The position numbers and the translations under genes were made by a program. Positions 1 through 60,900 of a stretch of DNA of 64,000 nt are shown here, one piece after another (position 1 is the stretch's first letter; the number at the start of each line of letters is the position of its first letter). The notes below the pieces were generated by a model that did no database searches, was not told the DNA's origin, and saw nothing but the letters and a program-made list of their open reading frames with translations. This stretch comes from Mobula hypostoma (taxonomy: Eukaryota): positions 40,488,001-40,552,000 of the forward strand of contig NC_086108.1 of NCBI RefSeq assembly GCF_963921235.1. The letters are read 5' to 3'.

Positions 1-1
1 G

Positions 2-8681: not shown

Positions 8682-8785
8682 CAACATACACACAATGCTG
8701 GAGGAACTCAGCAGGTCAGGTGGCATGTATGGAAGGAACTGAACAGTCAATGTTTTGGGCAAAGATCCTTCATCAAGTCTCATCA
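8682..8785 (-). mobile_element. 104-bp Penelope-derived insertion with degenerate hammerhead
   Basis: TSD GTGTGTGTTAAC (8670-8681) / GTGTGTTTTAAC (8786-8797); minus strand TTGATGAAGGATCTTTGCCCAAAACATTGACTG. Confidence 0.8.
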
Positions 8786-8817
8786 GTGTGTTTTAACTGC
8801 TTGTTAGTGAACTGCCT

Positions 8818-9117
8818 GTCCTGACACACAGGTCAGCTCAGGCAGACTGGGTGGATAAGACCTACAGTGAGATCCAACTGCCTGGAAGATGGTACTGCAA
8901 TGCTCCGTGGAGAGTGAAAGGCATGACAAGGCACAGAAGATGTCATGGTCATCCATAGCAACTAAGGAAGACCGCAATTTGTGATGCTTACTCAGACCAC
9001 TGGACTCAGACTTCTGAGGTTGAGAGAGTGAATCTCTGCCAGTGCAATGGCTTTTCCACTTTAAAAACTCCCCCCGCACAGGTTTCCTGTCATTGTCAGA
9101 CACACCAGACAACCACC
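8818..9117. mobile_element. 300-bp non-coding retroposon-like insertion, family unassigned (possibly RTE-related)
   Basis: Perfect 12-bp direct repeat AGTGAACTGCCT at 8806-8817 and 9118-9129. Confidence 0.65.
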
Positions 9118-11096: not shown

Positions 11097-13789
11097 TACT
11101 ACCTTGAGATTCATTTTTGAGAAGGCATACACATGAAAATTTAAAAAAACAATGGAATTCATGAAATGCTGTACATAACAAAGACTGACAAACGCCAATG
11201 TTCAAAAGAAGGCAAATCATGCAAATAGTAAAAATGTAAGCAAATGATACTGAGAAAATGAGCTGTAGCGTCCTTCAAAATGACTCTATAGGTAGAGGAG
11301 TCAGTTCAGCATTGAGGTGGGTGATGTTATCCACACTAGTGCAGGAGCCTGATGGCTGTGTAATCAATGGATTATTTTCCTCAGTGGGGGAATCTAGAAC
11401 CAGCAGCATAGGATCAGAATAAGCATCACCCACTTCATTTGGGGGTGAGGGTGGATTTCTTCATTTGGAGGATCGTGACTCTTTGGAATTCTCTATTCCA
11501 GAGAGATCTGGAAACAGAGACAGTGAGTATATTTGAGGTGGAGACTGTCAGATGTTTACAGGAACTTCAAGGGGTATGCAGAGACATATGAAAATGATAA
11601 TGAGATCACACTTGGATCAGCATTGAACTTACTGAATGATGGGGCATTTTCACGGAATCAACTGGCCAATTCTTGCTCCAGTGATAAGTTTAAGTGAAAC
11701 GGATGTTCTTTGGTTTCTGAATGCACCTTGAAGAGGAAGAAGAAGTTATTATTAGCTGGAACTTGTCCCTTGCGGGATTTGTTTTTAGGTTTAATGAGCA
11801 AATTCCAAAAAAAGTGGCTTAGGTCCAACTTATTGTGTTTCTATCAGGTCTGATGTTACAGTGGCTACATGTTAACCTGAACTGAGCCAGTCAAACACAT
11901 ACTGCGGCAAGAAGGTTAGAAGCTATGTTTCCTGTGGCAAGTTCCTCCAAAACTTTAATGAATAGTGAGAGTAGCTCCAGAAACACCAATAAGCAGTTCT
12001 GCATGCCAACCACTTCTTTCATTCCTACAAGAACCAATGTACCAATACACTGTGATGGCTTTAGGCAGCATGTCTCAAGTTCTCAAACCCAATTAAAAAG
12101 GACAAGTGTGTGGGAATACTTCTTCTTCCTCGTACCCCTCAAAGATGCCCATCCTGCTTTGGAAATTCATTGTCATTCCTTTATTCCTGCCTGATTAAAA
12201 TCGTGGAGCTGGCTGTCTGATAGCTCTGCTGGAGTATGTGAGTTGTGCCTTTCAACACCATCATCCCGATCAATAAGGGCTGGGTCATATATCTTCAGAA
12301 AGTTAATGTAAACTGTGTGCCCACATTCTACAGAGCCTGTTCCCTTCGGACACATGACTCTTAAATTTGTAAACTGAAGTGCACCTGTCAATTTTGATTC
12401 AATGTATTTTCCTAGGCCAAGTCATGTTGCATCTGTTGAAAACATTGGTCCAGCCACACTTGGAATATTGTGTATGGTTTGGGTCTCCTTGCCACAGGAA
12501 GGATCTAGTAGCATTGTAAAGCATGCAGGAGTGGTTTACAGGAATGTTGCATGGAATTGAGAGTTGGGATAAGGTGGGTTGTCTCTCATTGGAATGTAGA
12601 AGGTTATAATCTCCAATTTCAGGTTAAAAAAAAACCTTGGCCTCCTTTCTATGTTTACAAATGCCAGGTGTGAGTGGGCTTTGTTGGCTGCTCTTGTAAC
12701 TTACAGAATGTTACCCTACTTCTGCATATTTTTGTTTTGCTCCAGAGAGCAGTACACCTGTCTCTTTGTTGGCTAATGGTTTTGCAAAGAAAGGAAGAGA
12801 GCCCAGAATAAAGCAATTTACCTCCCACCTGCTCTGCCCATAACCACAGAAAGTGGGTTTGTGTATATAGAACAATTGGCCTCCTTTTTCTGTGCTCAGT
12901 GGAGATGACCTACTGCATGTTACTGCTGCGCCTGAAATCTCTCACCACGTTTTTGTGCCTCAGTTCCTGATCAAATATAGCTTGAAGCATAACATGTTCA
13001 GCAATAAAAAGATAAATGTTTGACAAAAGGAAATGCTTTATTTCCACTTGTGTTCTGTATGTGTTAATCATGAGGTGTACATCATTGAGGAAAATTATAG
13101 GCATTAAGGTGAGACTTGGGAGATGAGGCCAATGTTTTAGTAAATGCAACGTGCTACTGTTGTACCTGATAATCTACATTTCCTGAGTGTGACAAGATGG
13201 ACTTTAGATTACAAAATCTACTTTGTTCTAATCTTGTGCCTTATTGTCTACCTGCACAAAGCATTTTCTCTGTAACTGTGACACTTAATTCAGCACTCTG
13301 CTATTGTTTTAACTATGCACTGTTGTAATAAATTGATTTGTGTAGATAGTTTGCAAGGCAATTTTTTCCATTGTACCTCAATACATGTGACAATGATAAA
13401 CCAATTTTCCATTTACACTTCACAAAAATTAAGTATTTGTATTTGCTCAAGTACTCAGCCAAGTAATTTCATGTTTTGCACACCCCGCTCACAGAGCAGT
13501 CCCATTCCCCCACTGATGCTCCCGATAACTTATTCTCCCCAGATTCTACATACCAGGCACAAATTGCAATGACCAGTTGAATGAGAGCTTTTGTCTCAAC
13601 TATCCTTTCTGTCAGTCAGTTGGACAATTCCACACACAAATTTTCCTTCAGGCAAAACACTGTCATTTTAGATTGATGTTACTCGGTTATTTATTCTCAG
13701 CTAGGGGAAGAAATTTGTTTCTATACCTCTAATATTTTAACCTAGGTGTCCTCAACAGTACATGGACCACGAATGTCGAGGCCATGATC

Positions 13790-26249: not shown

Positions 26250-29200
26250 TAAGAGCATAAGAACTAGGAACAGAATTAGGCTGCTTGACCTACCTAGTCC
26301 GCTCCAACATTCTGTCATGGCTGATTTACTTTCCTCTCAACCCCACTTACCTGCCTTCTCTTCGTAACCGTTGACGCCCTGTTTAATCAAGAACCAATCA
26401 ACATCCACCTTAAATATATCTAATGACTTAGCCTACACAGCTGCCTATGGCAAAGAATTCAACTGATACGCCACACTTCAGCTGAAGAAATTTTTTCTCA
26501 AATCTGTTTTAAATGGACATCCCTCAATTCTGAGCCTCTGCCCTTTGGTCTTATACTGCCCCTCTTCTTCACATCCACTCTATCCAGACCTTTCAATATT
26601 CGACAGGTTTCAATGAGATTCCCCCTACACCCCCCCCCCATTCTTCTAATCTCTAGAGAGTACAGGTCCAGAGCAGTCAAAAGCTCCTCATATTTTAAAC
26701 CTTCCATTCTTGCAATCATTCTTGTTAACCTCCTCTGGTCTCTCTCCAATATCAGCATATCTTTTCTTAGATAAGGGATCCAAAACTGTTCACAATACTC
26801 CAAGTGTGGTATGACCAATGCCTTATAAAACCTCAGCATTACATCCTTGCTTTTTTCATTCTAGTCTTCTGGAAATGAATGCCAACATTGCATTTGTCTT
26901 CCTTACCAACCTGCAAGTTAACCTTCAGGGAATCCTGCACAAGGATTCCCAAGTCCTCTGCAACTCTGATTTTTGAATTTTCTCCCCACCTTTATTCCTT
27001 CTGCCAAAGTATATGACCATGCACTTCCCGACACCATATTCCATCTGCCACTTTGCCCTTTCTCCTAATCTGTCTAAGTCCTTCTGCAGAAATCCTCCTT
27101 CCTCAACACTACCTGCCTTTTCACTTATCTTTCTATCATTCACTATTTGGCCACAAAGCCACACAATTCCTTCATCCAAATCATTGACATACAATGTGAA
27201 AAGAAGTGGTCCCAACACCAACCCCTGCAGCACACCATTAGCAAAAGCATCTTTTATTCCTATTCTTTGTCCACTGCCAATCAGCCAATCTTCTATGAGC
27301 TCTAGTGTTACTACGGGCTTTTATTTTGTTAAACACCCTCATGTGCAACACCTTTTCAAAGGCCTTCTGGAAATCCAAACAAACAACATCCTGTCTGGTT
27401 AGTTCCTCAAAGAATTCTGAAAGATTTGTGAAGCAAGACTTCCTCTTTAGAAAACCATGCTGACCTTGGCCTATTTTATCACGTACCTCTAAGTAACTCT
27501 GAAACCTCTTCCTTAATAATATAGAGTCCAACATATTTCCAACCACTGAATTCAGGCTAACTGACTTATGATTTCCTTTCTTCTGCCTCCTTCCCTTCTT
27601 AAAGAGTGCAATTTTCCAGTCCTCATTAACCATTCCAGAATCTAATGATTCTTGAAAGTTCATTACTAATGTTTCCACCATCTCTTCTACTACCTCTTTA
27701 AGAACCCTGGCATGTTGTCCATCTGGTCCAGGTGACTTATCTAACTTCAGTCTTTTTAGCTTCTCAAGCACCTTCTCCTCAGTAATAGTAATGACACTCA
27801 CTTCTGCCCCCTGACACTCCTGCATTTCTGGCACTCTGCTAGTGTCTTCCACAGTAAAGACCGATGCAAAATACTTATTAGGATCCACAACTATTTCTTT
27901 GCACCCCATTTCTACCTTTGCAATGCCATTTTCCAATGGTCTGATATCCACTACATTTTGTACCCTCTTTTATATTATTGGCTAGCTTACCTTCATATTT
28001 ACCTTCTTATGGCTTTTTAGTTGACTTCAGTTGGCATTTAAAAGCTTCTCAATCCTTTATCTTCCCACTAATTTTTTCTATGTATTATGCACTCTTTTTT
28101 GCTGTTATGACAATAGACAATAGGAGCAGGGGTAGCCCATTCGGCCCTTTGAGCCAGCACCGCCATTCACTGTGATCATGGCTGATCATCCACAATCAGT
28201 ATCCAGTTCCTGCCTTATCCCCATAACCTTTGATTCCGCTATCTTTAAGAGCTCTATCAATCTCCTCCGTGAAAGCATCCAGAGACTTGGCCTCCACAGC
28301 CTTCTGGGGCAGAGCATTCCACATATCCACCACTCTCTGGGTGAAAAAGTTTTTCCTCAACTCCGTTCTAAATGGCCTACCCCTTATTCTTAAACTGCGG
28401 CCTCTGGTTCTGGACTCAGCCAACAGCGGGAACATGCTTCCTGCCTCCAGCGTGTCCAATCCCTTAATAATCTTATATGTTTCAATCAGATCCCCTCTCA
28501 TCCTTCTAAATTCCAGAGTATACAAGCCCAGTCGCTCCAATCTTTCGACATATGACGTCTTTGACTTCTCCTGTCAAACATTGCTGCTTCATCCTCTCTT
28601 TAGAATACTTCTTCATCATTGCTGTTCTGCTGTCATTTCTGCTAGTGTCCTCTTCCAAGCAATTTGGCCAGCTTCTCTCTCATGCCTCTGTAATTCCCTT
28701 TACTCCACTGTAAAACTGATGCATCTGATTCTAAAATTGCAGGTTGAATTCTATCATATGGGCTATTACTAGGGCTATTATTCTATTACTAGGGCTATGG
28801 GTAACCCTAGTAATTTCTAAGGTAGGGACATGTTTGGCACAACTTTGTGGGCCAAAGGGCTTGTATTGTGCTATAGGTTTTCTATTCTATACTATTCGTA
28901 TTATGATCACTATCTCCTAAGGGTTCCTATACCTTAAATTTCCTAATCGAATCTGAGTCATTACATAACACCCAATTCAGAATTTCCATTTCCCTAGTGG
29001 ACTCAACCACAAGCTGCTCTAAAAACCATCTTGTAGGCATTCTACGAAGTCCCTCTCTTGGATTCCAGCACCAACCTGATTTTCCTAATCTACGTGCATA
29101 TTGAAATCGCATGTGATTATTGCAGCATTGTCTTTTTCACATGCCTTTTCTATCTCCTGTTGTAATTTGCATCCCAAATCCTGGCTAATGTTTGGAGGCC

Positions 29201-42380: not shown

Positions 42381-42935
42381 TAACCAAATCTGTAAGCTTT
42401 TGATATCTATGCAATTGACGAGCAGATTGTCTCTCCAGCCCTGGGCTTCTCAATGTTCACAGTTTGAAAATGATTATACTTCAGGAGTTATTGTTCCAAC
42501 AGGATTATCCACTCCTCTTGACTATTTCAAGGCTGGATTTTGAACTCTGTTGTGCTTTTCCTCAATGTTTCTGTGTTTGGAGAGGAGCTATCTTTCATAT
42601 ATCTTGCTGTTATATTTCTGGTCTGTGACAATAGACTAAGACGTAAATATAAAACAAGATGCTCTATAATGCTGGAAATCAGAGAGTAAAAAGTGAAAAA
42701 TTTGTATCTAAAATGTTAGTAGGCAAGATCAGTGATGGAAGAACAGGTTTAATGATCTAAAGGAGAAATAACTGCAGATGCTGAACAGAAATAAAAAATG
42801 AAGATAGCAAGGTCAGGCAGCTTCTGCGGAGAGAGAAGCAGTTGGTATTTTTGCTCTGGGACTTTTCAGAATTGATCATAACTTTTTTGAAAAAGAGCTC
42901 CACACCTGAACTGATCACTGTTACTCTGTGAACTG

Positions 42936-43062
42936 CAAACACGAGGAAATCTGCAGATGCTGGAACTTCAAGCAACACACATAGAAGTTGCTGGTGAATG
43001 CAGCAGGCCAGGCAGCATCTCTAGGAAGAAGTACAGTCGACGTTTCGGGCCGAGACCCTTCG
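42936..43062 (-). mobile_element. 127-bp Penelope-derived insertion, 5' end inside the hammerhead core
   Basis: Perfect TSD TGTGAACTG (42927-42935, 43063-43071); minus strand begins CGAAGGGTCTCGGCCCGAAACGTCGACTG. Confidence 0.85.
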
Positions 43063-43399
43063 TGTGAACTGGCCTGTTTCCAACAATTTAACCTTTCCAT
43101 TCGATGGGATTAGCAGCCATAAGGGATCCTCTGCTATGGCTTATTGTGAGTCTTGGGCTGCTAACCTTCCAGCACCTGTTTACACCTGTCTGCAATGTTT
43201 TCGAGCAGGACTGGATGATCAGGTGGGAGACATGGAGACATAAGAAAATGGTCTCATATCAGAAGGCCACCGGTAGGAGAGTAGGATTATAAAGAGCTGC
43301 CAGTGATGGGAATGTGGAAAGGAAGTTTGCCTCTGCTGAAGCTCATCAATTCCATGCTGAGCTTGAAGAATTAATAATGTTACTTCCAGCCTACGAGAA

Positions 43400-44190
43400 G
43401 TACAAGTTCGGGTATTCAAAGTTGCTTCTCTACTGCAGGAGTGACACCACCTCATATTCCATCTGGGTAGCCTCCAATCTGATGGCATGAACCGGTAATT
43501 TCTCCCTCCTCCCTCTTCTCTGTTCTTCAATTTCCTGTTCTGATCCCACTTTCACCCCTTCTCTCCTCCCCTACCCGTCACCTCCCTCTGATTTCCCCTT
43601 GTTGTAGCGTGGATGTAATCACCGGAGAGACAGAGTCACTGGTAGATACAAAGCAGATTCTTTATTCAACACAACAAGGTACAGCAGGCATCTTAGCGGA
43701 TGGAGGCGCTTTCCGCAGAAAGGTCTGTTAGCTCAATGTGGGCTCGATATTTATATGCTAAACACAACGGCAATCGCTACTTAAAAAGTTATAGACAATG
43801 CTTCCTATTGAAGCTGCATACAAAATATCACACCATCCTTTCCTTCCGACACCAACATGTCTGGGTTGGTATCCACAGCCTTTAGGAATGCAAATTAAGT
43901 ATACAATACATTTATATGGCATTTCCCATGCTAACATAGAAGACAATTAATATTTATAATGTATAGATAATACTGTCTTCAAAACTACAGCATCAGGTCA
44001 AACTACGGCACCAGAAGCATCTGGTATTCACACCTTTTTAGGAAGCGCATTGATGTGGACTTAATCCACAGTACTTTGTCAAATAGAAGTCTGGTGGCCA
44101 AAGTCATTTAAGTGTAAACAAATCATCTACCCAAAATAACTCACTCTAACACTCCTCCTCCTTCCCTTTGTCCCATGCTCATTCTCCTAT
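43400..44190 (+). mobile_element. Penelope-like element fragment (GIY-YIG C-terminus + pyrimidine tail), interrupted by a solo LTR
   Basis: HLIFHLGSLQSDGMN at ~43448-43492, homologous to the GIY-YIG end near 63730-63790. Confidence 0.7.
43600..44151 (-). repeat. Solo LTR type A
   Basis: TGTT...AACA termini; reverse complement aligns to 1424-2212 minus the insertion; 5-bp flanks CCCCT / CTCCT. Confidence 0.9.
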
Positions 44191-45021
44191 CAAGGTTCTT
44201 AGGAATCCATTGTTCAGAGCTGCACTGTAGACTTAATCTTCAATGCATATTTCAATCTGAAGAATGATCACTGAAGTCAATATTTGCTTTAGGTCCTAAC
44301 CCCAAAAACGCCCTGAAAGTCCCTCCTCTTGGCCCTCTTGGACAAAATAAGTTTGTACCAGGAAAAGGCCAACAACCTTAAGGAAGATCTACTCAAATAG
44401 GGCAGCAGAAATGCCCTGCTTTGGAACCCTTCCATATATGTGTATCTACATCTACCCTATCATCCCTAATAGCTACTTACAAAATGCTAAGCAAAAAGGT
44501 TGTTCCAGAAACTTGAACAGTCTTTAGAAATGCAGCTTTGTTCGTGCTCCTGTTGGCTCTTTCCCTGCTGGCTGGTTGCTATTCCGTGTCTTCACCCCTT
44601 CATTTTCTGGTAGACAAAACTCCTTCTTTCTAGGAGTACCAGCAAAGTAAATGTATCAGGCTCTCAGGCCCTCTTATCGATGTACACAAAGGGGGTTGGG
44701 GTGGTCTCTATTTGAATGACCGCAAGGACCTCTCTCCAGTGGCATCCCCTTCCGAACTGTCCAGCTGATCACTGGCCCGACTGCTGAAAGCACCCAGCTC
44801 ATTTGTACTCACTCTCCATTCAGGCTGGGGGTGACTGCCTTCAGATGCCGTGTGCATGCCATTGAAGTTATAGAACCTGATATCTCTGCTTTAACTTAAA
44901 TCCCTCCCCATCTATTTTCCTCAATATTTTTTCTTTTCTATTCTATGCTATTCAACTAATCATTGACTTTCAGCAACCAGCCTTAATTACAGAGTACCAT
45001 TTTCAATACACTTTAGCATGC

Positions 45022-48000
45022 TATTCACGGGTTTCTGGCGTGCCCTCAGTGTCTTCTGCCTTTGAGTCTGCTGTGCGTGTGTTCCCATCAACTATGGTCA
45101 GGCCTGGTGTGGCCTTCTGTTCATCTCTTAGGTTCTCTGTAACTACACAGTTACTGGGTACACTTGATCTCCCACTCTGCCTGTGGGGCAAACAAGAAAG
45201 TTTAACCTGAGTCTAGCGTTTCCACAGACTGCCTCACTGAGTCTGTACACAGTCATTTGTTAAAAGTACCATCTGTGGTCCTAACCATCTGGGAGTAAAC
45301 CCTGTGCTTTCAGGCTGCACCCTCACCATGACCTGGTCACTCAGCTGTGGGAGGACTATCTCCTTTCCTTCTGGCTCTCTCTGATTAGCAGTATGCTGCT
45401 GTTGTTTTGCTCGGTCCTTCAATGCTTTAAGTCAGTTACAAATGTCTTTCCCTTGCGGGGTCATTCTATCCCTGTAAGCCCCAGGCTCACTGCAACCCAT
45501 AACTACCCTATAAGGGAGTTGCATTGCTTGCCCCATCAATAATTCGTAGGGGCTGAAACCCAATATGCCGTTTGTGGTTGCTCACAATTTCATCAGGATT
45601 CCTGGTAATACATCAACCCATGTCTTTCCCATCTCAGCTACAACTTTGGCTAAGATGTTCTTGATTGTGCAGTTCATTCTTTCTACCATTCCTGAACTCT
45701 GAGGGTGGTGGGGTATGTGGAACCGTTGTCGAATTCCTCACAGTCGGCACATTTTCTTCATCACTTTCCCTGTGAAATGTGCTCCCTGATCCGAGTCCAC
45801 CTGGACTGGGGTTCCCCACCTTGGGAGAAACTCCTGAACTAGGATCCATGCAGCAGTGCTGGCAGTGCAGTCCCTTGTTGGGAAAGCCTCTACCCACCGG
45901 GTGAAGTGATCCACAATTCCTAGACTGTAGCTTTTCCCCTTGCTTTTTGGCAGAGGCTCCATGAAGTCTATCTGGAAGTTTCCCAGGGTCCCCTCGGCAG
46001 TGGCTGATCTGCCAGCTGTAGCTTTATGCCCTGACCAGGGTTATACTGGGCACAAATGATACAATGTGGCAGAATTTCTCAACATCCCCGCCCATTCCTG
46101 GCCACCACCAGTCCTGCCGGAGGGTCATGATCAAGCTCTGTCTTCCCTGATGTCTCACCCCATGATATAACTTCAGTAGTATCTGCCTAATACATGGTGG
46201 GGCCACCACAACCCCTTCCTCCCCGTGTGTCCAGCACCCATCTGGTCCCTCCTTTGCTCCTTTTCTCCTTCATTTCTCATTCTCTTCTGCCTCTACCTCT
46301 TCATATAATTTTAAACTGGCTTCTGTCATTTCCTCCTGCACACTTGCAATTTCAATTGCCTCTTGTTCCTCCGCTGCCTTCTTCACACTGGCATCTGCCC
46401 ACTCATTTCCTTTCTGCTCCTCACTCTCCCCTTTCTGGTGAGCTTTTGCTTTAGTTACTGCCACCTCTGTTGTCAGACTCACTGCTTCCAGCAGTTGTTG
46501 TTTTAGGTGCCCGTGCTGAATACCTGCTCCTGATAAGGTTTCAGATCCTCATCGTGCCCACACTATCAGATAATCATGTACCACCCCGAAGGCGTACCAG
46601 CTGTCTGTATATATATTTGCCCGTCTGCCTTTACTGCAACTCAGTGTTTCTATCAGGGCCACAGTTCCGCTTCCCAGTCTGAACAACCGCTTGGCAGTGC
46701 TCCTGAAGCTAATTCTTCACCTGTTTCCTTCACCATGCCCCACTTAGTCCGTGGCTTCCCATCTACGTACCTCCAAGACCCACCTATAAAAATTTCCTCT
46801 GCTTCCCTTTCCGGAAGTGTTTCCTTCACACCAATATATTCTTCCTGCTCTATTTCCATTTGGCACTCGTGTGTATCCCTCTCTGTTAGGGTGCTGCTTG
46901 CGGGGTTCATCCCAGTGTCCCTAACTATCGTTACTGACTTGTCTTTCCAGATGAGAACCACCTCCCAAGCTGCCCTTCTGCTGTTGGTGACTGCTCTCAG
47001 CCTCCCTGTGGTCAGGAGCTCTACAATGGTATAGGGTGTGTGTGGAATGAGCTCTCCCACCATAACAACTGGTTTGCTTACTCCCACTGCCCATACAACA
47101 CAGTCTAAAACTGCTACACAGTGGGGAAGTCCTGCTGCAATGGGAGTCTGTTTCGTTGAATAATATGCCACTGGTCTTTTTTTGTCCCCATGGTCCTGCA
47201 CCACTCGTGCATTGTAACATACTCCCTTATTGCTGCAGTATAGGCGAAAGGGGCCACATCCGGTAATCCTAGAGATCAGGGCTTTCTTAATATCTGGAAA
47301 AGCCTTTTCCTCATCTGGCTTCTCTCCTTTAATCAAGGCCTGTATCGGGGCCACTAGTGCTGAGAACCCTGGTATGAAATTACAGCAGTAATTAAATAGA
47401 CCCTTTACCTTCCTCACTCCCCTTACCTTTGCTGAGCGGGTCGTGAAGCTGATTGCTGAACGTCTGTCATCTGTCATGTCCTTCCTCCCCTGGGAAATGG
47501 TGTAGCCTATGAGCCCTGTGTGGACAGATTTTAAACCCATCATCTTGCAGTATCTCTAGAACACTGGCTATCACCTCTAAATGACCAGCTTCATCTTCTG
47601 AAGCAATTGGTAGATCATCTACATATTGTAAGATGGTCGACCAGTAGGGCATTAGAGTGAGCTTTTCCAAAGTCTGCAGTATGACCTGGCTGGGCTATTG
47701 CGGAATCCCTGGGGGAGTCTGGCCCACGTATGCTGCTGCCCATCCAGGATGAAGGCAAATCGGTCTTGGGACTCAGGTACTAAGGGGAGCCCCCAGAATC
47801 TATTAGCGATATCCAGGACTGATAAAACATTATGTTCTGGAGACAAGCCATTCAGTATTGTTGCAGGGCTCGCCACAGTGGGATGCAATCTCGGCGTGGT
47901 CTTATGAAGAGCAGTATAGTCTATTGTTGAGTCTATTGTTCTCCTTTCTTTTAAGTGGGTTTATCTTTATTCCACCACAATCTTGCTTGTGTCTCACCCA

Positions 48001-48430
48001 CACTGCTGGGAACAGCTGACGAAGTAACCCATAGACACTACCCTGACTCTACTGTCTCATGGTCTGGGCAGTTTTTGCTATGCTGGCTAGGTTGTGTACT
48101 TTATTGCTTGTATGTGTTTGCTGCCCCTGACTTACCCATATCATTTCACCCTTTCCTAAATCTATGATGGCCCCTGCTTCTCTTAGGATACGTATTCCAA
48201 GGATAGCACCCTCTTTATTTGGACAGACCCAGCAATACACTGGAAGTTGCACTCTGCCGATTTCAAGTATCTGCAACTCACTTCTTTCTGCTTTCACTGC
48301 TTCCCCACCCCGCGCACACACGTAATATAAATAGCATGCCTGGTTGTTAGCAAGGGAAGGTCAATTATCAATACTGATGTCCCCTGTGCCAATTAACATA
48401 TCGCACTGCTAGTCCCCTAACAATGCTTTG
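45022..48430 (-). pseudogene. pol: pro-pol: protease, RT, tether RNase H, RNase H, integrase; many frameshifts
   Basis: MLIGTG (degenerate DTG, ~48382-48399); SVLDIANRFW...WARLPQGFRNSP; QYVDDL; PFRLY...RPVAYYS (tether); NIYTDSWYAFGVVH and KAH...GNEWAD (RH); HGVRHQG...WWWPGM...C; IVDHFTRWVEAFP...VDSDQGAHFTG (IN). Confidence 0.93.
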
Positions 48431-48479
48431 TGTACATCTGTGGGTCACCAGCGCTGGCACTGGGGGCCGCCACTAGATA

Positions 48480-49412
48480 TTTTGCTGACCTAGAAGCTGC
48501 CTTCACCAGCCCTATAATCTGATCAGCAGGCAGATTGAACAAACTGGGCGCTGATGGGGTGAGAGATTACGTGTCTGCCATAACTTCTGCCTGTTCCCCC
48601 CCCCCCCAACTCTATTTTGGACACTGCCTCCAACCATGTCCCGACAGGGCACAGCTGTAGCTTATCGACTTCTTTACTGTTTATGCCTGGTCTGACAGTC
48701 CTTTGCTAAGTGCCCTAGTTGCTGACACACAAAGCAAAGCCTCTGTGATGCTATAGCAGCTGCATCCACTAGAGCCATGTTACAATTTCTTTTGCATTTT
48801 CTTTGGTCTATCTCACTGGCCTGTGAAACAATTGCAGAGTAGGTCAATCCTATCACTATCCCTAAATCTAAAACTTCCTATAGGGCTGAGTTCAGGCTTC
48901 CTTCATCATTTTCAGGGAAACTAGGTTGTCTCTCCCTGAATTATCTAATCTTGAATACTCCTCGTACACTGGATATTTATGTTCTGGAAGTCCTTGGCTG
49001 TCTCATCAGCTCCTTGAACTATTATCGTTCCCCAGTTATTCTCAGCTACCCCAGTAGCTGCCTCACTTCCCCTTTAAAAGAGTGGTATCTTTCTTCATTG
49101 CTGGCACTCCCAGTAGTTGCCCTGTACCATCCCGCACTCTCTGGGCCATACTGCTCCAAATATTCCTCGGGCACTTCGCTTTTTACCAATGTATGTATAT
49201 TTTTAGGGTGCATCTGGTGAATTTCAACCATTTCCTCGAGCTTGCATCAGAATTCTGAATTCCCACATGTGACTTAAGTGAGGGCAACTCTGATAATGCC
49301 CTGTTTCTCCCTGGGGGTGAAAAGCTTATGAATGGTCGTAATCAAGGTCAAGGGCAGGCTCGGATCATTGGGGTTCTCGATCTGATGTTTGCCTGACCTC
49401 AAAAGCTGCCAT
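48480..49412 (-). pseudogene. gag: Short gag with a single CCHC zinc knuckle
   Basis: CFVCQQLGHLAKDC in ORF 48674-48856; ORF 49046-49231 upstream; candidate ATG (GGATGG) at 49412. Confidence 0.75.
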
Positions 49413-49904
49413 CCTGACAGATATATCTGGGCAGAACCTCTCCCTGAAATATCTCCACACTACACAAAATATAAATGACGGCTACCAGTTGAGCAGCGCA
49501 AACTTAAAACCGCAGAGTATATGCTCCGCAATCGGCCACATCTGTGCACCAGAGCTCATGATGCCTGTTGTATTCCTTTGCATCACACTCGCAAAACGTG
49601 TAAGCTAAAATGCAGCTCCCAGAACGAGTATGCACGCCCCCACTGGTATCCCGCACCTTCAATACCCTTCGCAACTGGTGGCCCTGTCTCACCAAATTAA
49701 CACACAAGGTTTCGTCTCTTAAATAAACACACATGCACGTGCACACACTGCTTTTATATCTATCAATTCAGCTCTCCATGTTTGCTATACCTCGCATTCC
49801 CGTGTGCCACCGGCCCAAACAGATCCAAGTGTAAATGCTAATTTAAAAAACACTCACCTACTTAGACTGCTAAGATCACTGGCCACACAATGGGTCACAA
49901 GAAG

Positions 49905-49925
49905 GTATCCCATTCCTGAACGAAA
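49905..49925 (-). promoter_or_regulatory. Degenerate primer-binding site, most like tRNA-Leu
   Basis: Directly after the LTR CA end: TTTCGTTCAGGAATGGGATAC, versus the tRNA-Leu(CAG) complement TGGTGTCAGGAGTGGGAT. Confidence 0.55.
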
Positions 49926-50467
49926 TGTTGTTTTGTGAATGAAGTCACCAGAGAAAAGTACTAGTAGTTATGAAGCAGCCTCTTTATTCGACAAAACAGG
50001 ATACAGAAGGTATCATATTGAGACCCTTTGTGGAAAAGGTCTGCTTGGCCCAGCTCTACACAACATTTTATGTCCCAAAAATCAAAGAAAAATTCAGGAC
50101 AATTCAAACAAATCCATATTTACAATGCTTTCTTTCAATTACACACCATAATTCCGTATTTATAATGCTTTCTTTGACCTACACACCACAATTCCATATT
50201 TACAATACTTCCCTTGAACACACCACTTTCACACCTCCCTCGTTCGCACCCATGCTACAGACATCCAAATACACACAAATAATGAACTTAAATCAGCAGT
50301 GTGTGATCTTCTGCTTAACTGTTGTCTTCCAAAGAGCTTGGTTCAAGGTTCTTAGGAACCCATTGCTCAGAGTTGCATTTTAGAGTTAATCTTCAATGCA
50401 CATTCAGATCTGAAGGTTGGACACGGAAGTCAATAGCCAATGTCCTGACCCCCAAAACAGCCTAACA
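49926..50467 (-). repeat. LTR type B (5' LTR of copy 2)
   Basis: TGTT...AACA; AATAAA on the minus strand at ~49983-49988; R/U5 resembles type A, U3 does not. Confidence 0.88.
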
Positions 50468-52580
50468 CATGGTTGTGCCCTCGACGCCTCAGTGAGAGAG
50501 AAGCAATGGAGTCAATCATTGGCTCGTTACCCATCTCCAGGCTACCAGACCTCCAGACCATACACTCTGCTCTAAACCTCATCAAACTCCCTTGGAGTCA
50601 GCAAAGCACAAGATCACTCAATCAGCCTCAAAATACACCATCACAGGTTCCCATTGCACATAGTTTAGTAGTAGAATCTTATCTGAAAGAAGCAGTGAAA
50701 GAAGGAAAAGAAATATTCTGGTTTCTTCCCCCGTCCTTTCAAGCACTGTTGAAAGGTCCTGACCTGAAATGTTAACTGCTAATTCCCCCCAAAGACACTG
50801 CCTGACCTGTTGAGTTCCTCCAGCATTTTGTCTGTTGGTCTGTTTTGAATTCCTCCGGATGTTCTGCAACTCTTGATGAGCATTAGTTTCAGGTTAAAAT
50901 AGGGTTACGTGCTCTGCTAACACTGGACGCATTTCCAAGCAATTGAAGACTGGCTGCATGCAGTCCCCCTGACAGAAGATCGTTTTTATGGGGGGATCAC
51001 AAGAATATTGCTGGTATTGCTTTTGTTTTTGCAGGGCAGATATGATTCCAATCAAGCCATCAGAGTTATGATACAGCACAACATCCAGAGCATGCTAACC
51101 AAAGTGAATGTGTGCAGTGCTGCTATCTTTCTGCACATGCTGCAACCATTAGTGCAATTGGCTTCAAAATGCTTTGAGCACTCATTGGAATACTGATCTG
51201 ATTTCAAGAGCCTATTGCTTCAAATGTAACAGTGCCCTAACAAAATGCCACACACTTTAAAATGCTATGAAAGGCAATGCGAGTAAACTCTGTCACCAAT
51301 TATTTCTGTGCTTTACACTTTAAAATGTCATCCATGTTCAGCCCTCCAGTGAGAAATGGGGAATACTGGTTTGAAAGGCACTAGTTTGTGTACAGAGCAT
51401 CAAAAAATACACTGACATTTAAGTTTTTTTTATCTTGTTTATTTGTTTCAAGTAACAACATTACTTGGGCTGAAGTAGTGCATCCATATCTCAGAACCCT
51501 TAACTCTGCAGAGATTTACTAGAAACACAGCCCATCAGGCTTATTGCGTAGGTTCTGTGTGGCCCAGAGTTTCCCAGCTTAACCTTGGTATTTCTGAAGC
51601 CCAGTGTAATCCTGTTCAATGCTCACTGTCAATCCCACCCAACATAATAAAGAAAGTTTTATATTTTATTGAGCCAAAAAAGGGAGTAAGAATTATAAAA
51701 GGAAACATTATTTGTCTGAATTGGTATATGGTCCAAAATATTACAAGAGATGTCATTCATGGTGCCTCACAGTTCTCCCTTGTCTTGTACACTGAAACCG
51801 CTGGCCAGATGCAGCTGTTATTTGGTGACATAGTGAGCCCTCTCTCTCTCTTTCCTGACACAGACTGTGTGCATCTTTGCCTATTCACTAGGCACAGGTG
51901 ATGGGTACAGCACAGCAATGAGAAGTACGGTATGTGGATAATTTCCCTTTGAATGTTTAGAATGAAGCAACAAGTCAGAGTACATTTTCCTTTGCTGCGA
52001 TATATTGCAACGATCATAACTAAAGTGTTCCTTTATCCATTCATTCCCATGAAAAGATATATTCTATGGGGACAATCATAACTAAAATGCTCCCTTTATT
52101 CATTCATTCCTCTGAAAAGATGAAAGTTTTCCATAGGTCACTACCTTCAGTGCCATGGGCTAACCCATTAATGTGCTTAATTGCATGCTTTATCAAAAAC
52201 ACTTTGCACTCAATTAAAACTGAATTACACAGTGACTGGTTACTTCACTATCTAGGGGAACATTGGATGCTGATAATATTGAATGTGTCCCATTGTATCT
52301 CCTTGGTGATCGTCTGAATTCTCCCACACTCAGATGAAATAATGTTATTCCTGATGTTTGAGATATGTACAGTATTTTAAAAGATTAGGTGAATATATTG
52401 AATTGTGCCTACTCTTCCTTCTTTGGCAATTGTTGTTGTCATTTTGTCTCTCTGTATGGGCTGCAGATTTATACAAGGATTGCCTACTGTTCTTTATCAA
52501 TGTGAAACTTGGATGATTTTCTAACCTCACCTGAAGAGTTCGGGGTGCGTGCCTTTGAAAAATGTTCTGCATTGAGTATA

Positions 52581-53031
52581 CGAGGGGTGATTGATAAATT
52601 TGTGGCCTAAGGAGTCAATTTTAGAAAACCTAGCACATTTATTTTTCAACATAGTCCCCTCCTACCTGTACAAACATAGTCCAGCAGTCATGGAGCATAC
52701 GGATCCCTTCTTTGTTGAAGTGGTCCACAGCAGGGGTGATTGATAAGTTTGTGGCCTAAGGTAGAAGGAGATGAGTTATTAACTTCAAACTCTCTGCATT
52801 ATCACTCAAAGAGTTGAACTGCACGTGCATGTAACGAGAGCGTCTTGGGCCTCCAAGTAGTCCACAGAAGGGGTGATTGATAAGTTTGTGGCCTAAGGTA
52901 GAAGGAGATGAGTTATACAGCTGTCATTACATGCACGTCCAGTTCAACTCTTTGAGTGATTATGCAGAAAGTTTGAAGTTAATAACTCATCTCCTTCTAC
53001 TTTAGGCCACGAACTTATCAATCACCCCTCG
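52581..53031. mobile_element. Non-autonomous mariner-type MITE with internal TIR repeats
   Basis: TA|CGAGGGGTGATTGATAA...TTATCAATCACCCCTCG|TA; extra TIR copies at ~52733 and ~52870. Confidence 0.88.
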
Positions 53032-55103: not shown

Positions 55104-55963
55104 TTTCTTTTTAAATCTTTTTATTGAATAAGTATACAAAAAGGTAAGCCATATAAACATTAATACAATGTTAAAATATAATAAAATTCCAGAAGGTATC
55201 AATACCAAAAAAAAATACTACAAACAATGTAATTTAAACATAAGAAACCAAGATAACATAATAGTATACTAAATTTTATATATATCAATAGAAAAAAAGA
55301 AAAAAAAAACCCCAAAAAAAACCCACCGTGCAACTAACTAAAAGCAAAGCAAAGCAATGGGCTAACTTGAAACCAAACAGAGTTAAACTTAAAATCACGT
55401 CCTCAATCCCGACCTCCATTAAAAACAGTGAAAAAAAAACAAGAAGGGTATATATTACATTAAATGAAAATATCGAATAAAAGGTCCCCAAATCTGTTCA
55501 AATTTAAATGAAGAATCATAAAGGTTACTTCTAATTTTCTCCAGATTCAAACATAAAATCGTCTGAGAGAACCAAAAAAAGGTAGTTGGAGCATTAAGCT
55601 CTTTCCAATGTTGTAAAATACATCTTTTCGCCATTAAAGTAAGAAATGCAATCATTCTACGGGCTGAAGGGGAAAGATTACTAGAAATTTTAGGTAGTCC
55701 AAAGATAGCAGTAATAGGGTGAGGAGAGATATCTATATTTAATACCTTAGAAATAATATTAAAAATATCTCTCCAAAAAGTTTCCAAAGTAGGGCAAGAC
55801 CAAAACATATGAGTTAAAGAGGCTATCTGCCCCGAACATCTATCACAAAAAGGATTAATATGCGAGTAAAAACGCGCTAACTTATCTTTGGACATATGTG
55901 CTCTATGAACCACTTTAAATTGAATTAGGGAATGTTTAGCACAAATAGAGGAAGTATTAACAA
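55104..55963 (-). mobile_element. Young 5'-truncated L1-clade LINE (ORF2 C-terminal CCHC domain + 3' UTR)
   Basis: Uninterrupted IQFKVVHRAH...CDRC...SLTHMFWSC...FW...W.PF; perfect 12-bp TSD GATCAATCTTCT (55092-55103, 55964-55975); AATAAA and A tail. Confidence 0.92.
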
Positions 55964-56531
55964 GATCAATCTTCTCAAAGTGCTGAGATCTGCCAACTCT
56001 TTGAATTTCTTCCAGTGATTTGTCTACTATCAATACAGGATGGTCAGGCTATCTCCCTCCCCTTTTTCAAACAATGTCATCACTTCAACAGTCTTGTCCT
56101 CCGGCATTGTGTCAACATGGATTAGAAAATAGAAATCGGAGCCAATACTATTTCTTCCTTTTCCCTTGCCTCTTAATGGTCTAAGCTCCATTTAATCTGA
56201 ATCTGGTGATTTTCTCAATTTTTCTAAAAATGCTGATCCCTTTTAACGCTTTTCTATGTGTGTTTTACATTCACAATCCTTTGCGTTTTTCTTTCTCAAT
56301 GGCAAATACTTTGAATTATTTATATCTTCTTTTGCACTCAGGCTAATAGATTTCTTTATTCTTTTCATTAAGGATTTTGGGATTTTCCTTAATTTTACCT
56401 GCTTGTATTTTTCATTCCTCATCTTTAGGTTTGTAATTTTCCATTTTATTTTAACCTTTGCAGCTTCCTTACTCCTTGGGCTCTTTGCAGGGGTGTTTTC
56501 TCAGTATTTAAAATGTGCTTCTCTTGTTTTA

Positions 56532-57934: not shown

Positions 57935-60900
57935 TCTATAGATATAGAACAGTACAGCACAGTACAGGCCCTTCGGCCCACAGTGTTGTGCCGACCCTCA
58001 AACCCTGCTTCCCATATAACCCCCCCATCTTAAATTCCTCCATATACCTGTCTAGTAGTCTCTTAAATTTCACTAGTGTATCTGCCTCCACCACTGACCC
58101 AGGCAGTGCATTCCATGCACCAACCACTCTGAGTGAAAAACCTTCCTCTAATATCCCCCTTGAACTTCCCACCCCTTACCTTAAAGCCATGTCCTCTTGT
58201 ATTGAGCAGTGGTGCCCTGGGGAAGAGGCACTGGCTGTCCACTCTACCTATTCCTCTTAATATCTTGTATACCTCTATCATGTCTCCTCTTATCCTCCTT
58301 CTCTCCAAAAAGTAAAGCCCTTGCTCCCTTAATCTCTAATCAGAATCCATACTCTCTAAACCAGGCAGCATCCTGGTAAATCTCCTCTGTACCCTTTCCA
58401 TTGCTTCCACATCCTTCCTATAGTGAGGCGACCAGAACTGGACACAGTACTCCAAGTATGGCCTAACCAGAGTTTTATAGAGCTGCATCATTACCTCATG
58501 ACTCTTAAGCTCTATCCCTCAACTTATGAAAGCTAACACCTCATAAGCTTTCTTAACTACCCTATCTACCTGTAAGGCAACTTTCAGGGATCTGTAGACA
58601 TGTACCCCCAGATCCCTCTGCTCCTCCACACTATCAAGTATCCTGCCAATTACTTTGGACTCTGCCTTGGAATTTGTCCTTCCAAAGTGTACCACCTTCT
58701 CCAGGTTGAACTCCATCTGCCACTTCTCAGCCCACTTCTGCATCCTATCAATGTCTCTCTGCAATCTTTGACAATCCTCTACACTATCTACAACACCACC
58801 AACCTTTGTGTCATCTGCAAACTTGCCAACCCACCCTTCTACCCCCACATCCAGGTCATTAATAAAAATCATGAAAAGTAGAGGTCCCAGAACCGATCCT
58901 GGTGGGACACCACTAGTCACAACCCTCCAATCCGAATATACTCCCTCCACCACGACCCTCTGCCTTCTGCAGGCAAGCCAATTCTGAATCCACCTGGCCA
59001 AACTTCCCTGGATCCCATGCCTTCTGACTTTCTGAATAAGCCTACCATGTGGAACCTTGTCAAATGCCTTACTAAAATCCATGTAGATCACATCCACTAC
59101 ACTACCCTCATCTATATGCCTGGTCACCTCCTCAAAGAACTCTATCAGGCTTGTTAGACATGATCTACCTTTCACAAAGCCATGCTGACTGTCCCTGATC
59201 AGACCATGATTCTCTAAATGCCCATAGATCCTATCTCTAAGAATCTTTTCCAACAGCTTTCCCACCACAGACGTAAGGCTCACTGGTCTATAATTACCTG
59301 GACTATCTCTACTACCTTTTTTGAACAAGGGGACAACATTCGCCTCCCTCCAATCCTCCGGTACCATTCCCATGGACAACGAGTACATAAAGATCCTAGC
59401 CAGAGACTCAGCAATCTCTTCTCTCACCTCGTGGAGCAGCCTGGGGAATATTCCCTCAGGCCCCAGGGACTTATCCATCCTAATGTATTTTAACAACTCC
59501 AACACCTCCTCTCCCTTAATATCAAAATGCTCCAGAAGATCAGCCTCGCTCATATTGTCCTCACCGTCATCAAGTTCCCTCTCATTGGTAAATACTGAAG
59601 AGAAGTATTCACTGAGGACCTCGCTCACTTCCACAACCTCCAGACACATCTTCCCATCTTTATCTCTAATTGGTCCTACCTTCACTCCTGTCATCCTTTT
59701 GTTCTTCACATAATTGAAGAATGCGTTGGGGTCTCCTTTACCCTACTCGCCAAGGCCTTCTCATGCCCCCTTCTTGCTCCCCTCAGCCCCTTTCTTGCTA
59801 CCCTATATTCCTCAATAGACCTATCTGATCCTTGCTTCCTAAACCTCATGTATGCTGCCTTCTTCCACCTGACTAGATTTTCCACCTCACTTGTCACCCA
59901 TGGTTCCTTCACCCTATCATTCTTTATCTTCCTCACCGGGACAAATTTATCCCTAACATCCTGCAAGACATCCCTTAACATCCCTAAACATCGACCACAT
60001 GTCCTTAGTACATTTCCCTGCAAAAACATCATCCCAATTCATACCTGCAAGTTCTAGCCTTATAGCCTCGTAATTTGCCGTTCCCCAATTAAAAATTTTC
60101 CTGTCCTCTCTGATTCTATCCTTTTCCATGATAATCCTAAAGGCCAGGGAACAGTGGTCACTGTCCCCCAGATGCTCACCATTGAGAGATCTGTGACCTG
60201 ACCCGGTTCGTTACCTAATACTAGATCTAGTATGGCATTCCCCCTGGTCGGCCTGTCCACATACTGTGACAGGAATCCGTCCTGGACATACTTAACAAAC
60301 TCTGCCCCATCTAAACCCTTGGAACTAATCAAGTGCCAATCAATATTAGGGAAGTTAAAGTCACTCATGATAACAACCCTGTTATTTTTGCACCTTTCCA
60401 AAATCTGCCTCCCAATCTGCTCCTCGGTATCTCTGCTGCTACCAGGGGGCCGATAGAATACTCCCAATAGAGTAACTGCTCCCTTTCTGTTCCTGACTTC
60501 CACCCATACTGAATCAAAAGAGGATCCTGCTACATTACCCACCCTTTCTGTAGCTGTAATAGTATCCCTGACCAGTAATGCCACCCCTCCTCCCTTCCCC
60601 CCCCCCACCATCCCTTTTAAAGCACTGAAATCCAGGAATATTGAGAATCCATTCCTGCCCTGGTGCCAGCCAAGTCTCTGTAATGGCCACTACATCATAA
60701 TTCCATGTATGTATCCAAGCTCTCAGTTCACCACCTTTGTTCCTGATGCTTCTTGCATTGAGGTACACACACTTCAGCCCTTCTACCTTACTGTCTTTAC
60801 ACCCTTTATTCTGCTTCTCTTTCCTCAAAGCCTCTCTATATGTTAGATCTGGTTTTACTCCATGCACTTCTTCCACTGCTCTATCGCTCCGGGTCCCATC

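Follow-up and report, generated by a model that had tools for sequence, protein, structure and literature searches.

We analysed a stretch of 64,000 nucleotides of the Mobula hypostoma genome (NC_086108.1, positions 40,488,001 to 40,552,000), hereafter called the window. A decayed endogenous retrovirus (ERV) lies on its minus strand at 44190-50467. The element starts with a 5' LTR of an older LTR subfamily (49926-50467, 542 bp, TG...CA), the outer junction of which is bridged, at 98% identity, by a contig under a second organism label. A decayed primer binding site of the tRNA-Leu type is located two bases past the LTR (49907-49923). It is followed by a hydrophobic leader in the capsid frame, occupying the matrix position (49434-49604, 57 codons with one stop), and by gag capsid and nucleocapsid with stops and frameshifts (48477-49433), ending at the gag/pro junction codon 48477-48479. 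Pol consists of a broken protease (PR, 47950-48476), a frameshifted reverse transcriptase (RT, approximately 47310-47927), a tether, which is a degenerate first RNase H (approximately 46900-47309, RT_RNaseH E 1.7e-5), a frameshifted, MLV-like second RNase H (approximately 46365-46799, RNase_H E 2.8e-10) and an integrase (IN) with HHCC, core and C-terminal domains and a tail to the family-wide stop (45023-46200). A private deletion of ~170 bases after the protease removed the start of RT. The order gag-PR-RT-tether-RNase H-IN with two RNase H-type domains, proposed in an earlier sequence-only reading, was confirmed, and all three RT motifs listed there (LDIANRFW, LPQGFRNSP and YVDD) are present in the window. 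The element ends with a 3' untranslated stretch (44340-45022), a polypurine tract (PPT, 44320-44339) and a truncated 3' LTR remnant (44190-44318), which shares 80% identity with the 5' LTR across 120 bases. The stretch of ~0.7 kb between the pol end and the PPT contains no detected env remnant and no family-wide open frame, so the reported lack of env in both window copies holds.

Two further insertions of the same family lie in the window. A solo LTR of a younger subfamily (43600-44151, minus strand) was inserted into a fragment of a repeat next to the element and matches the element's 5' LTR over the last 96 bases only (74%). The 5-bp target duplication ascribed to it is present, but only four of the five bases are identical (AGGAG/AGGGG). 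This LTR is a separate, younger insertion than the element. The second copy is on the plus strand; it starts ~2.3 kb before the window, and its 3' part occupies positions 1-2212. It is not another full element but a complete two-LTR, RT-less derivative, with an exact GTGGC duplication, LTRs 4.6% apart, a gag-to-integrase junction in frame and a 230-base insertion inside the 3' LTR.

Full-length copies of the family measure ~6.9 kb and comprise two LTRs, gag and PR-RT-tether-RNase H-IN, without room for env. In one copy (L012:3615-5261) both RNase H-type domains are found in a single natural unbroken frame (RT_RNaseH_2 E 1.5e-11, RNase_H E 3e-23, rve E 3e-10). Pfam scans of the natural pol frames of the family gave no match to dUTPase. 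We found an 18-mer with at most three mismatches to the 3' end of the genome's tRNA-Leu(CAG) in 20 of 42 stretches scanned, seven of them exact; the Leu-like primer site is a property of the family; the site in the window itself is too decayed to pass this threshold. The 5-base target duplication is well supported across the family (exact in 8/17 two-LTR copies, 4/5 bases in two more), and the PPT/LTR junction reads GGGAC-TGTT. Retroviral hallmarks are thus present: tether and second RNase H, PR-RT-RH-IN order, LTRs, primer binding site, PPT and target duplication.

The capsid of the family aligns with Gag_p30-type capsids. The single zinc knuckle attributed to Gag proved to be two. In the window the first is CCHC (48695-48736, minus strand) and the second (48621-48662, minus strand) lies in a different frame with one ligand changed. 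Among 23 copies, the first is CCHC in 16 and the second in 10, and the remaining knuckles have one ligand changed or a gap. Spacings gave a Gag of ~370 codons when counted from an in-frame upstream ATG and of ~310 codons otherwise, which corrects the ~300 estimated before. The leader has 61 codons in most copies, is hydrophobic and stands at the position of the matrix domain. The maximum of its Kyte-Doolittle hydropathy over 19 residues is 0.9-2.0, with many copies below the usual mark of 1.6; two relatives with a Met-Gly Gag start and a longer N-terminus reach 0.56 and 0.20. One in-frame length variant of the leader derives from a 12-base repeat. We did not find a purifying signal in the leader (shared-variant w 0.78; 10 N, 4 S). 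At the gag/pro junction, TAG is present in 6/11 RT-bearing copies and 3/11 have no stop. RT-less copies carry an in-frame sense codon in 10/12 cases and a stop in one, and further readable RT-less copies have a sense codon in 6/6. No conserved structure was found downstream of the UAG (z -1.45 and 0.74).

The RT had been read as foamy- or class III-like. We observed lower identity to simian foamy virus (34%) than to REV (41%) and WEHV-1 (40%), with 38% to the snakehead retrovirus (SnRV). SnRV is an exogenous virus with env and a tRNA-Arg primer; it was represented by P0150, which matches 3/3 motifs of the published SnRV row. The RNase H matched MLV with E 2e-59 (MLV RNase H alone 4e-29) and foamy viruses with 1e-4 to 2e-3, and we rejected assignment to the foamy/loki RNase H group. 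Trees grouped the lineage with class I and an eel lineage (RT+tether 97/95, IN 99/95, RNase H 88/88); the RT-alone tree gave no resolved position beside class I. In every tree the RT fell outside the crown of class I (crown 100/99, next enclosing group 97/95), hence crown membership was rejected. It lay within canonical retroviruses, with the loki-like sequence and Gypsy excluded (100/99). The loki reference was one loki-like protein, P0332, chosen by motif; the trees were built without ERV-L, beta-, lentivirus and Odin sequences, and that of RNase H without simian foamy RNase H, the score of which was too low. A clade of RT with spumaviruses was not recovered in the free trees, and RT was sister to SnRV in none of the trees built. 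In AU tests a clade with foamy viruses obtained p = 0.049 on RT and p = 0.19 on RT+tether, a clade with SnRV p = 0.245 and p = 0.053, respectively, so that neither grouping was firmly rejected. The trees favour a position beside class I (epsilon/gamma), outside the foamy and loki groups. The LDIANGFW-type motif is also found in a coelacanth lokiretrovirus (LDIANGFW) and in SnRV (LDISNGFW), and is therefore no foamy signature. Since motif, identity, RNase H and trees give no support to a foamy-like RT, its combination with a CCHC Gag is no paradox.

We compared the family with other named groups. It shares MLV-like tether and RNase H, a Gag_p30-type capsid and the UAG junction with class I (epsilon-/gamma-like) and two knuckles with epsilonretroviruses, but its RT lacks the DL..AFF motif of class I. 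With SnRV it has in common LDI[AS]NGFW and WTRLPQGFH motifs, dual RNase H and UAG between gag and pro (PMC13517186), whereas SnRV has one knuckle (PMC1224870). Foamy-like ERVs of clade Tu have Gag without Cys-His boxes, mostly tRNA-Lys and GGGTG at the PPT/LTR junction (PMC5210030), traits that we rejected for this family with its two knuckles, tRNA-Leu and GGGAC-TGTT. Lokiretroviruses share dual RNase H and, in Loki-Lch, LDIANGFW (PMC7947760), and Odin shares dual RNase H and the lack of env (PMC7947760, PMC9040795). Loki has a WNRCPFGY RT, RNase H grouping with foamy viruses and a fusion-F-like env, and was found in 0/3 cartilaginous fish genomes (PMC7947760); in the ray family the RT is of the WTRLPQG type and the RNase H resembles that of MLV. 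Membership in Lokiretrovirus or Odin was rejected, as RT is inside canonical retroviruses without the CPFG motif and RNase H is MLV-like.

These data bear on whether the lineage is primitively env-less, either as an Odin-like retrotransposon with dual RNase H or as a branch on the foamy/loki side. Env was not seen, and the AU values do not firmly speak against a foamy grouping. The RT position inside canonical retroviruses and an RNase H outside the foamy/loki group (groups as in PMC7947760) argue against it, as do records of relatives of ~9.0-10.4 kb (contigs of 9029 bases; turtle consensus ~10.4 kb), and we consider it very improbable. After the protease start the whale-shark consensus has ~6.5 kb and the ray family 4.9 kb; the record lengths leave room for env, whose presence in them is not demonstrated. 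From the position of RT we infer that env was probably lost rather than primitively absent.

The deep elasmobranch env-less lineage suggested earlier is indeed retrovirus-derived, deep, little described and env-less in this genome, but it is not restricted to elasmobranchs, as relatives occur in teleosts and turtles. Whale shark and turtle relatives are already known from the catalogue of Xu et al. 2018 (PMC6001957), under clade Huo: rh_ty_ERV4 (whale shark), ch_my_ERV12, ch_pi_ERV20 and ma_te_ERV13 (turtles) and an_ja_ERV1 (eel). In that paper they are tree tips without a name of their own. The comparison used 400 letters per S2 Data record and the S2 Fig labels, by eye, and Huo membership was taken from the order of figure labels, not from the drawn tree. 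The turtle records share with the ray family the RT motifs HPIVASPATILN, LDIANGFWS and PQGFHNSP, the sequence wording of thumb and tether, and a motif in the capsid, and the protease start of the whale-shark record resembles that of the ray family by eye. Our own trees place the ray lineage nearer to class I than SnRV. The possibility that RT belongs to a described family with the same architecture was borne out by half, as relatives are catalogued, while the parts of the text of Xu et al. covered here held no description of their anatomy or of this architecture. The family may already have a repeat name.

Further, we looked at env across the genome. The integrase-to-PPT stretch was matched in one piece of 1.54-1.61 kb at 29/39 other scored loci, with a query biased towards env-less copies. 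Among 20 loci picked by RT/tether similarity, 15 extend to the PPT or 3' LTR, and none of these had env-sized extra DNA except L022; its 1.7-kb insert was rejected as env, as it matched no env family and resembles part of a LINE. No member of the lineage with env was directly observed. Reinfection would also account for spread, if another provirus, or an env-bearing master since lost, provided the envelope in trans, as MLV does for VL30 (PMC6466679). We found at least 78 env-like loci in the genome, many of them containing long open frames, and purifying selection on gag and pol is compatible with either route. However, neither gag nor pol of the family was found beside env in any of the 40 env loci fetched, whose best Pol match was epsilon-like in 37 and Gypsy in one, with two lacking a Pol match. 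Older and younger subfamilies are all env-less, and the Gag N-terminus does not have the Met-Gly start of the two relatives. We regard reinfection as improbable. The earlier suggestion of retrotransposition without env stands to the extent that this is most likely how the lineage spread in this genome.

The family is ancient and left hundreds of copies in this genome, among which RT-less copies are several-fold commoner than RT-bearing ones. Exact 18-mer counts were 28 for RT, 188 for IN, 241 for gag and 1688 for LTR, with reversed controls at 0. Shared deletions, of six types, are in frame in 23/27 copies; five types are in frame and one is split 1:1. Two of the six types are nested, and the second deletion atop the first likewise preserved the frame. 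As two types also remove the integrase core, retention of integrase activity is not common to all derivatives. Of the single-copy deletions, 11/20 are in frame, so the background in-frame rate is above one third. The excess of in-frame shared types (5/6) against this single-copy background is weak (about p = 0.16; about p = 0.02 against one third). In capsid, PR, RT, tether, RNase H and IN, shared variants have w = 0.10-0.44 and private variants w = 0.73-1.38. This depletion of amino-acid changes in shared variants points to selection during replication. Integrase of RT-less copies has one shared amino-acid change against eight silent ones; shared variants within the RT-less set may have originated before the deletions. 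All sampled copies are dead and the family is, as far as sampled, extinct in this genome. Env absence, many copies, purifying selection on gag-pol and non-autonomous derivatives, all seen in this family, are features of intracellularised ERVs with the way of life of IAP, MusD and ERV-L.

The copies could be an ordinary env-less ERV with ordinary deletion derivatives, where template switching at codon-phased microhomologies, a few lucky master copies, stop loss as a subfamily marker and an untranslated leader (Gag starting from the second ATG) explain the pattern. The in-frame share of single-copy deletions, short overlaps at several breakpoints, the leader w and the three RT-bearing copies with stop-less junctions fit this explanation. 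It fits less well that the first ATG of the leader is kept better (20/21) than the second (16/22), with no family-wide shared stop within the 61 codons, and that junctions without the stop turn up in two distinct gag clades, each with many RT-less copies. The nested frame-preserving deletion and the conserved integrase of RT-less copies also speak against it. We find this explanation rather unlikely.

The reading we prefer, and think probable, is a decayed env-less ERV of a deep fish-and-turtle lineage near class I, with likely env loss and intracellular retrotransposition, and with RT-less derivatives likely using RT in trans. Pol would be made by UAG read-through, as in gamma-, epsilon- and snakehead retroviruses, and particles would assemble inside the cell, the short hydrophobic leader directing Gag to an internal membrane. 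RT-less RNAs would yield one Gag-PR-IN fusion protein, which may act in cis to favour the packaging or the stability of the RNA encoding it, and may join particles made with helper Gag-Pol; helper and parasite RNAs may recombine.

By analogy, the RT-bearing/RT-less pattern matches IAP and IAP-I-delta-1 of mice. Lack of env, altered Gag N-terminus and many copies are common to mouse IAP, MusD and ERV-L and the ray family (PMC3197615, PMC6466679), and env loss with an altered Gag N-terminus is described for all three (PMC3197615). Non-autonomous IAP and MusD/ETn derivatives exceed helpers and, as predicted for the ray family, gag-pol fusion arises via in-frame deletion (PMC3197615, PMC6466679); that of IAP I-delta-1 acts in cis (PMC6466679). 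ER targeting and cis action are demonstrated for the mouse elements and only predicted for the ray family; IAP and MusD are class II and, as far as tested, not its kin. ERV-L has, like the ray family, a tRNA-Leu primer and 5-base duplication (PMC5930517), but no knuckle and a dUTPase, and ERV-L membership was rejected on the two knuckles and the lack of a dUTPase match in natural pol frames. A bolder claim is that a stem-class-I ray retrovirus independently, long ago, repeated the whole IAP programme: env loss, conversion of matrix to a hydrophobic anchor to internal membranes, and RT-less parasites repeatedly selected for stop loss and in-frame Gag-protease-integrase fusion in cis. We hold this as possible, with the odds against it.

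In summary, the absence of env in every copy examined, the reduction of the Gag N-terminus to a 61-codon hydrophobic leader, the UAG that separates gag from pro in the majority of RT-bearing copies, and the RT-less derivatives, mostly without this stop and mostly with in-frame deletions, are new. The importance is limited, as every copy sampled is dead, loss of env is in itself common and a published catalogue already contains relatives. In mammals, env loss accompanied by re-targeting of Gag, and gag-pol fusions that act in cis, have been documented (PMC3197615, PMC6466679). If true, the ray family would be a parallel case in a cartilaginous fish, from an unrelated retroviral lineage, pointing to general virus-to-transposon routes, and selection on the fusion could be tested with its several independent deletions as natural replicates. 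The lineage is also relevant to how class I arose: in three domains it falls between the snakehead-like viruses and the crown of epsilon and gamma, a placement that would make clade Huo a grade.

The element at window 44190-50467 (minus strand) consists of a 5' LTR (49926-50467, minus strand), a decayed primer site, gag, protease, RT, tether, RNase H, integrase, approximately 0.7 kb of untranslated DNA and a polypurine tract (PPT). Only the first 129 bases of its 3' LTR remain, as a repeat fragment truncates it. Every gene is interrupted by stops and frameshifts and approximately 170 bases are missing at the RT start. The RT motifs quoted in the sequence-only reading were found here, as was the domain order with two RNase H-type domains (tether and RNase H). 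The solo LTR at 43600-44151 belongs to a younger subfamily and was inserted into the repeat fragment that cuts the 3' LTR; its reported 5-bp target duplication is present, but only four of the five bases match. Window 1-2212 holds the final part of a second copy, a complete derivative from which RT has been deleted (RT-less).

Fragments of a short, extremely abundant repeat, which may resemble elasmobranch HE1/HER1 repeats, lie at window 43450-43599, 44152-44189, 1496-1728 and 50760-50835. The element's 3' LTR is truncated by one such fragment, which also contains the solo LTR; another lies inside the 3' LTR of the second copy. Summed contig depth was 1e5-1e6 at window 42801-43101, 43403-43703 and 50627-50927. 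Frames for LINE-type RT, endonuclease and zf-RVT were detected at 58519-59742, 60060-60689, 27238-27969 and 55455-56048 (all minus strand), with several related repeats spread over 26.7-35.9 kb and 58.1-63.3 kb. Window 52718-53029 and 9349-11155 carry a 110-base inverted repeat (94%, 78-base spacer), a direct repeat of 62 bases and clustered short repeats in both direct and inverted orientation.

We searched the M. hypostoma genome (3.48 Gb) for relatives of the element. Of 1804 candidates in the protein search, 131 were scored and gave 138 matches. Three sets of 20 loci were fetched, chosen respectively for RT/tether similarity, for DNA similarity from integrase to PPT and for a gag word that had no listed integrase word close by, together with the window's neighbour copy. 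Full-length copies measure approximately 6.9 kb from LTR end to LTR end. The Leu-like primer site proposed earlier was borne out, as family primer sites match the 3' end of the genome's tRNA-Leu(CAG) (20 of 42 stretches with three or fewer mismatches, 7 of them exact). The target duplication is 5 bases long, exact in 8 of 17 two-LTR copies and matching at four of five bases in 2; three or four more fit if decayed LTR ends are allowed for.

Divergence between paired LTRs (K2P) was 0.044-0.135 in 23 copies and 0.20 in two older ones, including the window element, for which only 116 bases were compared. Under the two rates given in Han 2015 (PMC4422223; 2.2e-9 and 2.2e-10 per site and year), a divergence of 0.05 equals 11 to 114 million years. 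Because of this spread, we claim only that the insertions are old and came in at least two waves. A contig labelled as a second organism spans the 5' junction of the window element at 98% identity, and therefore this insertion is older than the split from that organism.

No env was present in any family copy examined (frame scan of four copies, 15 RT-picked loci), which upholds its reported absence from the window's two copies. Env families were not detected in twelve frames of the 3' stretch in those four copies, and the stretch has family-wide stops in all three phases. The integrase-to-PPT query, which biases toward env-less copies, matched 29 of 39 other scored loci in one same-length piece. 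Among the RT-picked loci, 15 of 20 extend to the 3' end, and env-sized extra DNA was seen in none but L022; the L022 insert gave no Pfam hit over the cut-off and is presumably LINE-like. Further, we fetched 40 of at least 78 env-like loci in the genome, and none carried the family's gag or a close pol; the best Pol match was epsilon-like in 37 of the 40. A viral contig collection contained no relative of the family, and a metagenome contig collection yielded distant Gypsy-like loci only and no env-bearing relative.

Most of the fetched env loci (L070-L109) represent epsilon-like ERVs, an abundant group whose env frames are open over long stretches, many of 450-560 codons and two near 970. Another of the fetched loci, L089 (G000:C81:31319400-31329300 of the M. 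hypostoma genome), holds a Gypsy-like element whose integrase precedes RT (L089:3095-5964), a Gmr1-type order. It lies approximately 2.5 kb upstream of an env-like match (~8560-9040) on the same strand, an adjacency that may be due to chance.

Family Gag has two zinc knuckles, 25 codons apart, and not the single one described before; the horn-shark relative P0004 also has two. The capsid aligns with Gag_p30-type capsids, for which we relied on the visible capsid alignment alone, as the profile comparison scores 100% mainly via pol columns. Capsid atlas matches (best 0.90, to an unnamed entry; Gag_p30/p24 0.86-0.88) are leads only. Upstream of the capsid, in the same frame, is a 61-codon leader; its ATG is present in 20 of 21 copies, and it contains a hydrophobic segment with basic residues after it. 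Its language-model features matched matrix families at 0.88-0.89, again only a lead. In two relatives, gene-model proteins of unseen env status, the Gag N-terminus is longer, hydrophilic and starts with Met-Gly, in contrast to the short leader of the family. Amino-acid changes were not depleted among shared leader variants, which counts against leader function. A single Gag frame modelled with AlphaFold reached pLDDT 35, and the model was set aside.

The nearest named Pol proteins come from sharks. RT identity to the family was 61-64% for the related proteins P0303, P0306 and P0301 (Mustelus), 49% for Heterodontus, 48% for an eel cluster, 46% for Pimephales, 41% for REV, 40% for WEHV-1, 38% for SnRV, 37% for loki-like, 34% for simian foamy and 25-30% for Gypsy sequences. 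In the RT tree (mixture model; 42 rows, after 32 of 74 were dropped as near-duplicates, fragments or long Gypsy branches) the family and its shark relatives grouped at 100/98, joined three teleost rows at 93/93 and fell within canonical retroviruses at 100/99; the backbone did not resolve. In the RT+tether tree (31 rows), where the closest intact relatives stand in for the absent family row, the lineage (98/94) was sister to eel, Astyanax/Coilia and class I at 97/95. The same neighbourhood was obtained from the integrase tree (99/95, without the loki-like row) and the RNase H tree (88/88, without simian foamy and loki-like rows), the omitted matches being too weak. None of the trees included ERV-L, beta-, lenti- or Odin sequences. 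In AU tests, neither a clade with foamy (p = 0.049 on RT, p = 0.19 on RT+tether) nor one with SnRV (p = 0.245 and p = 0.053, respectively) was firmly rejected.

The proposal of a foamy/class III-like RT was not supported, given the lower identity to simian foamy than to REV and WEHV-1 and the RNase H, which matches MLV far better than foamy viruses. In the Wang and Han scheme (PMC7947760) the RNase H of foamy and loki elements is grouped together, and under it an MLV-like RNase H excludes that group. The LDIANGFW-type motif is not a foamy signature, since Loki-Lch has it and SnRV has LDISNGFW. A lokiretrovirus was ruled out by motifs, RNase H and trees. As for an elasmobranch lineage, shark relatives are indeed closest, but teleost rows and turtle ERVs with the same motifs extend it. 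Whale-shark, turtle and eel ERVs with these motifs appear in Xu et al. 2018 (PMC6001957), where, judging from figure label order only, they come last in the clade Huo block; record lengths there of up to approximately 10.4 kb would leave space for env. A literature search, with subscription journals and repeat databases outside it, gave nothing beyond Xu 2018 and Han 2015 and no account of a form that lacks env, bears the leader or lacks RT. The lineage appears poorly described in its architecture, and relatives were already on record. Overall, the earlier observation was confirmed in part and its interpretation supported in part.

At the gag/pro junction, RT-bearing copies (helpers) had an in-frame TAG in 6 of 11, GAT in 3 and other sense codons in 2, one of which is the window element. 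RT-less copies had GAT in 10 of 12, TAG in one and a shift by an indel in one, and six further readable RT-less copies all had GAT. One continuous gag-pol frame without a stop was ruled out, as most RT-bearing copies read TAG. UAG read-through at gag/pro is the rule in gamma-, epsilon- and snakehead retroviruses (PMC13517186), and by analogy the family probably uses it. No consistent RNA structure was found after the gag stop. In L024 and L059, two fetched loci, junction type conflicts with RT content or with the position in the gag tree, which hints that helper and derivative recombined.

Exact 18-mer counts in the genome were 28 for RT, 188 for integrase, 241 for gag and 1688 for LTR; the words were picked as well conserved, and the three internal ones match 73-91% in sampled copies. 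Six deletion types are common to at least two copies and are in frame in 23 of 27 copies; the majority of copies keeps the frame in five types, and one type is split. Among single-copy deletions 11 of 20 keep the frame (one unscored); therefore the in-frame excess among shared types is suggestive, not decisive. An out-of-frame reading of the RT deletions was rejected, as frameshifts of the reference copy inside the deleted part had given the wrong frame. In-frame deletion together with the missing gag/pro stop would leave the common derivative with a single predicted product, a Gag-protease-integrase fusion that lacks RT and RNase H. In five loci (L112, L120, L125, L126 and L110, the last only approximately 3.1 kb) the integrase core is gone too, and the gag side still joins the integrase C-terminal part in frame. 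The 20 gag-bearing loci L110-L129 have no shared insert of captured RBM25 or myosin cDNA. Variants common to at least three copies had amino-acid to silent change ratios of 0.10-0.44 in all coding domains and private variants 0.73-1.38, which indicates selection while replicating and neutral decay once inserted.

From the observed anatomy, env absence, selection pattern and abundance and frame of the derivatives, we propose that an infectious ancestor lost env, that helper Pol would be made through UAG read-through and that particles would assemble inside the cell by way of the leader. RT-less RNAs would be copied by RT provided in trans, and the fusion may give a cis advantage, either in packaging or in avoiding the decay of RNAs that carry early stops; derivatives without an integrase core favour the latter. 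We consider this whole explanation reasonably probable. An env-less retrotransposing family with trans-copied derivatives, taken alone, is very likely.

In env absence with an altered Gag N-terminus the family resembles the way of life of IAP, MusD/ETn and ERV-L; env loss comes with a changed Gag N-terminus in IAP, MusD and ERV-L (PMC3197615). IAP I-delta-1, a non-autonomous gag-pol fusion, acts in cis and dominates new insertions (PMC6466679), whereas in the family cis action of the fusion is only inferred. In summary, these results raise the tentative and rather doubtful possibility that a class I-stem ray retrovirus independently repeated the mouse IAP programme, with env loss, replacement of matrix by a hydrophobic anchor, and parasites repeatedly selected for a stop-less, in-frame, cis-acting fusion.
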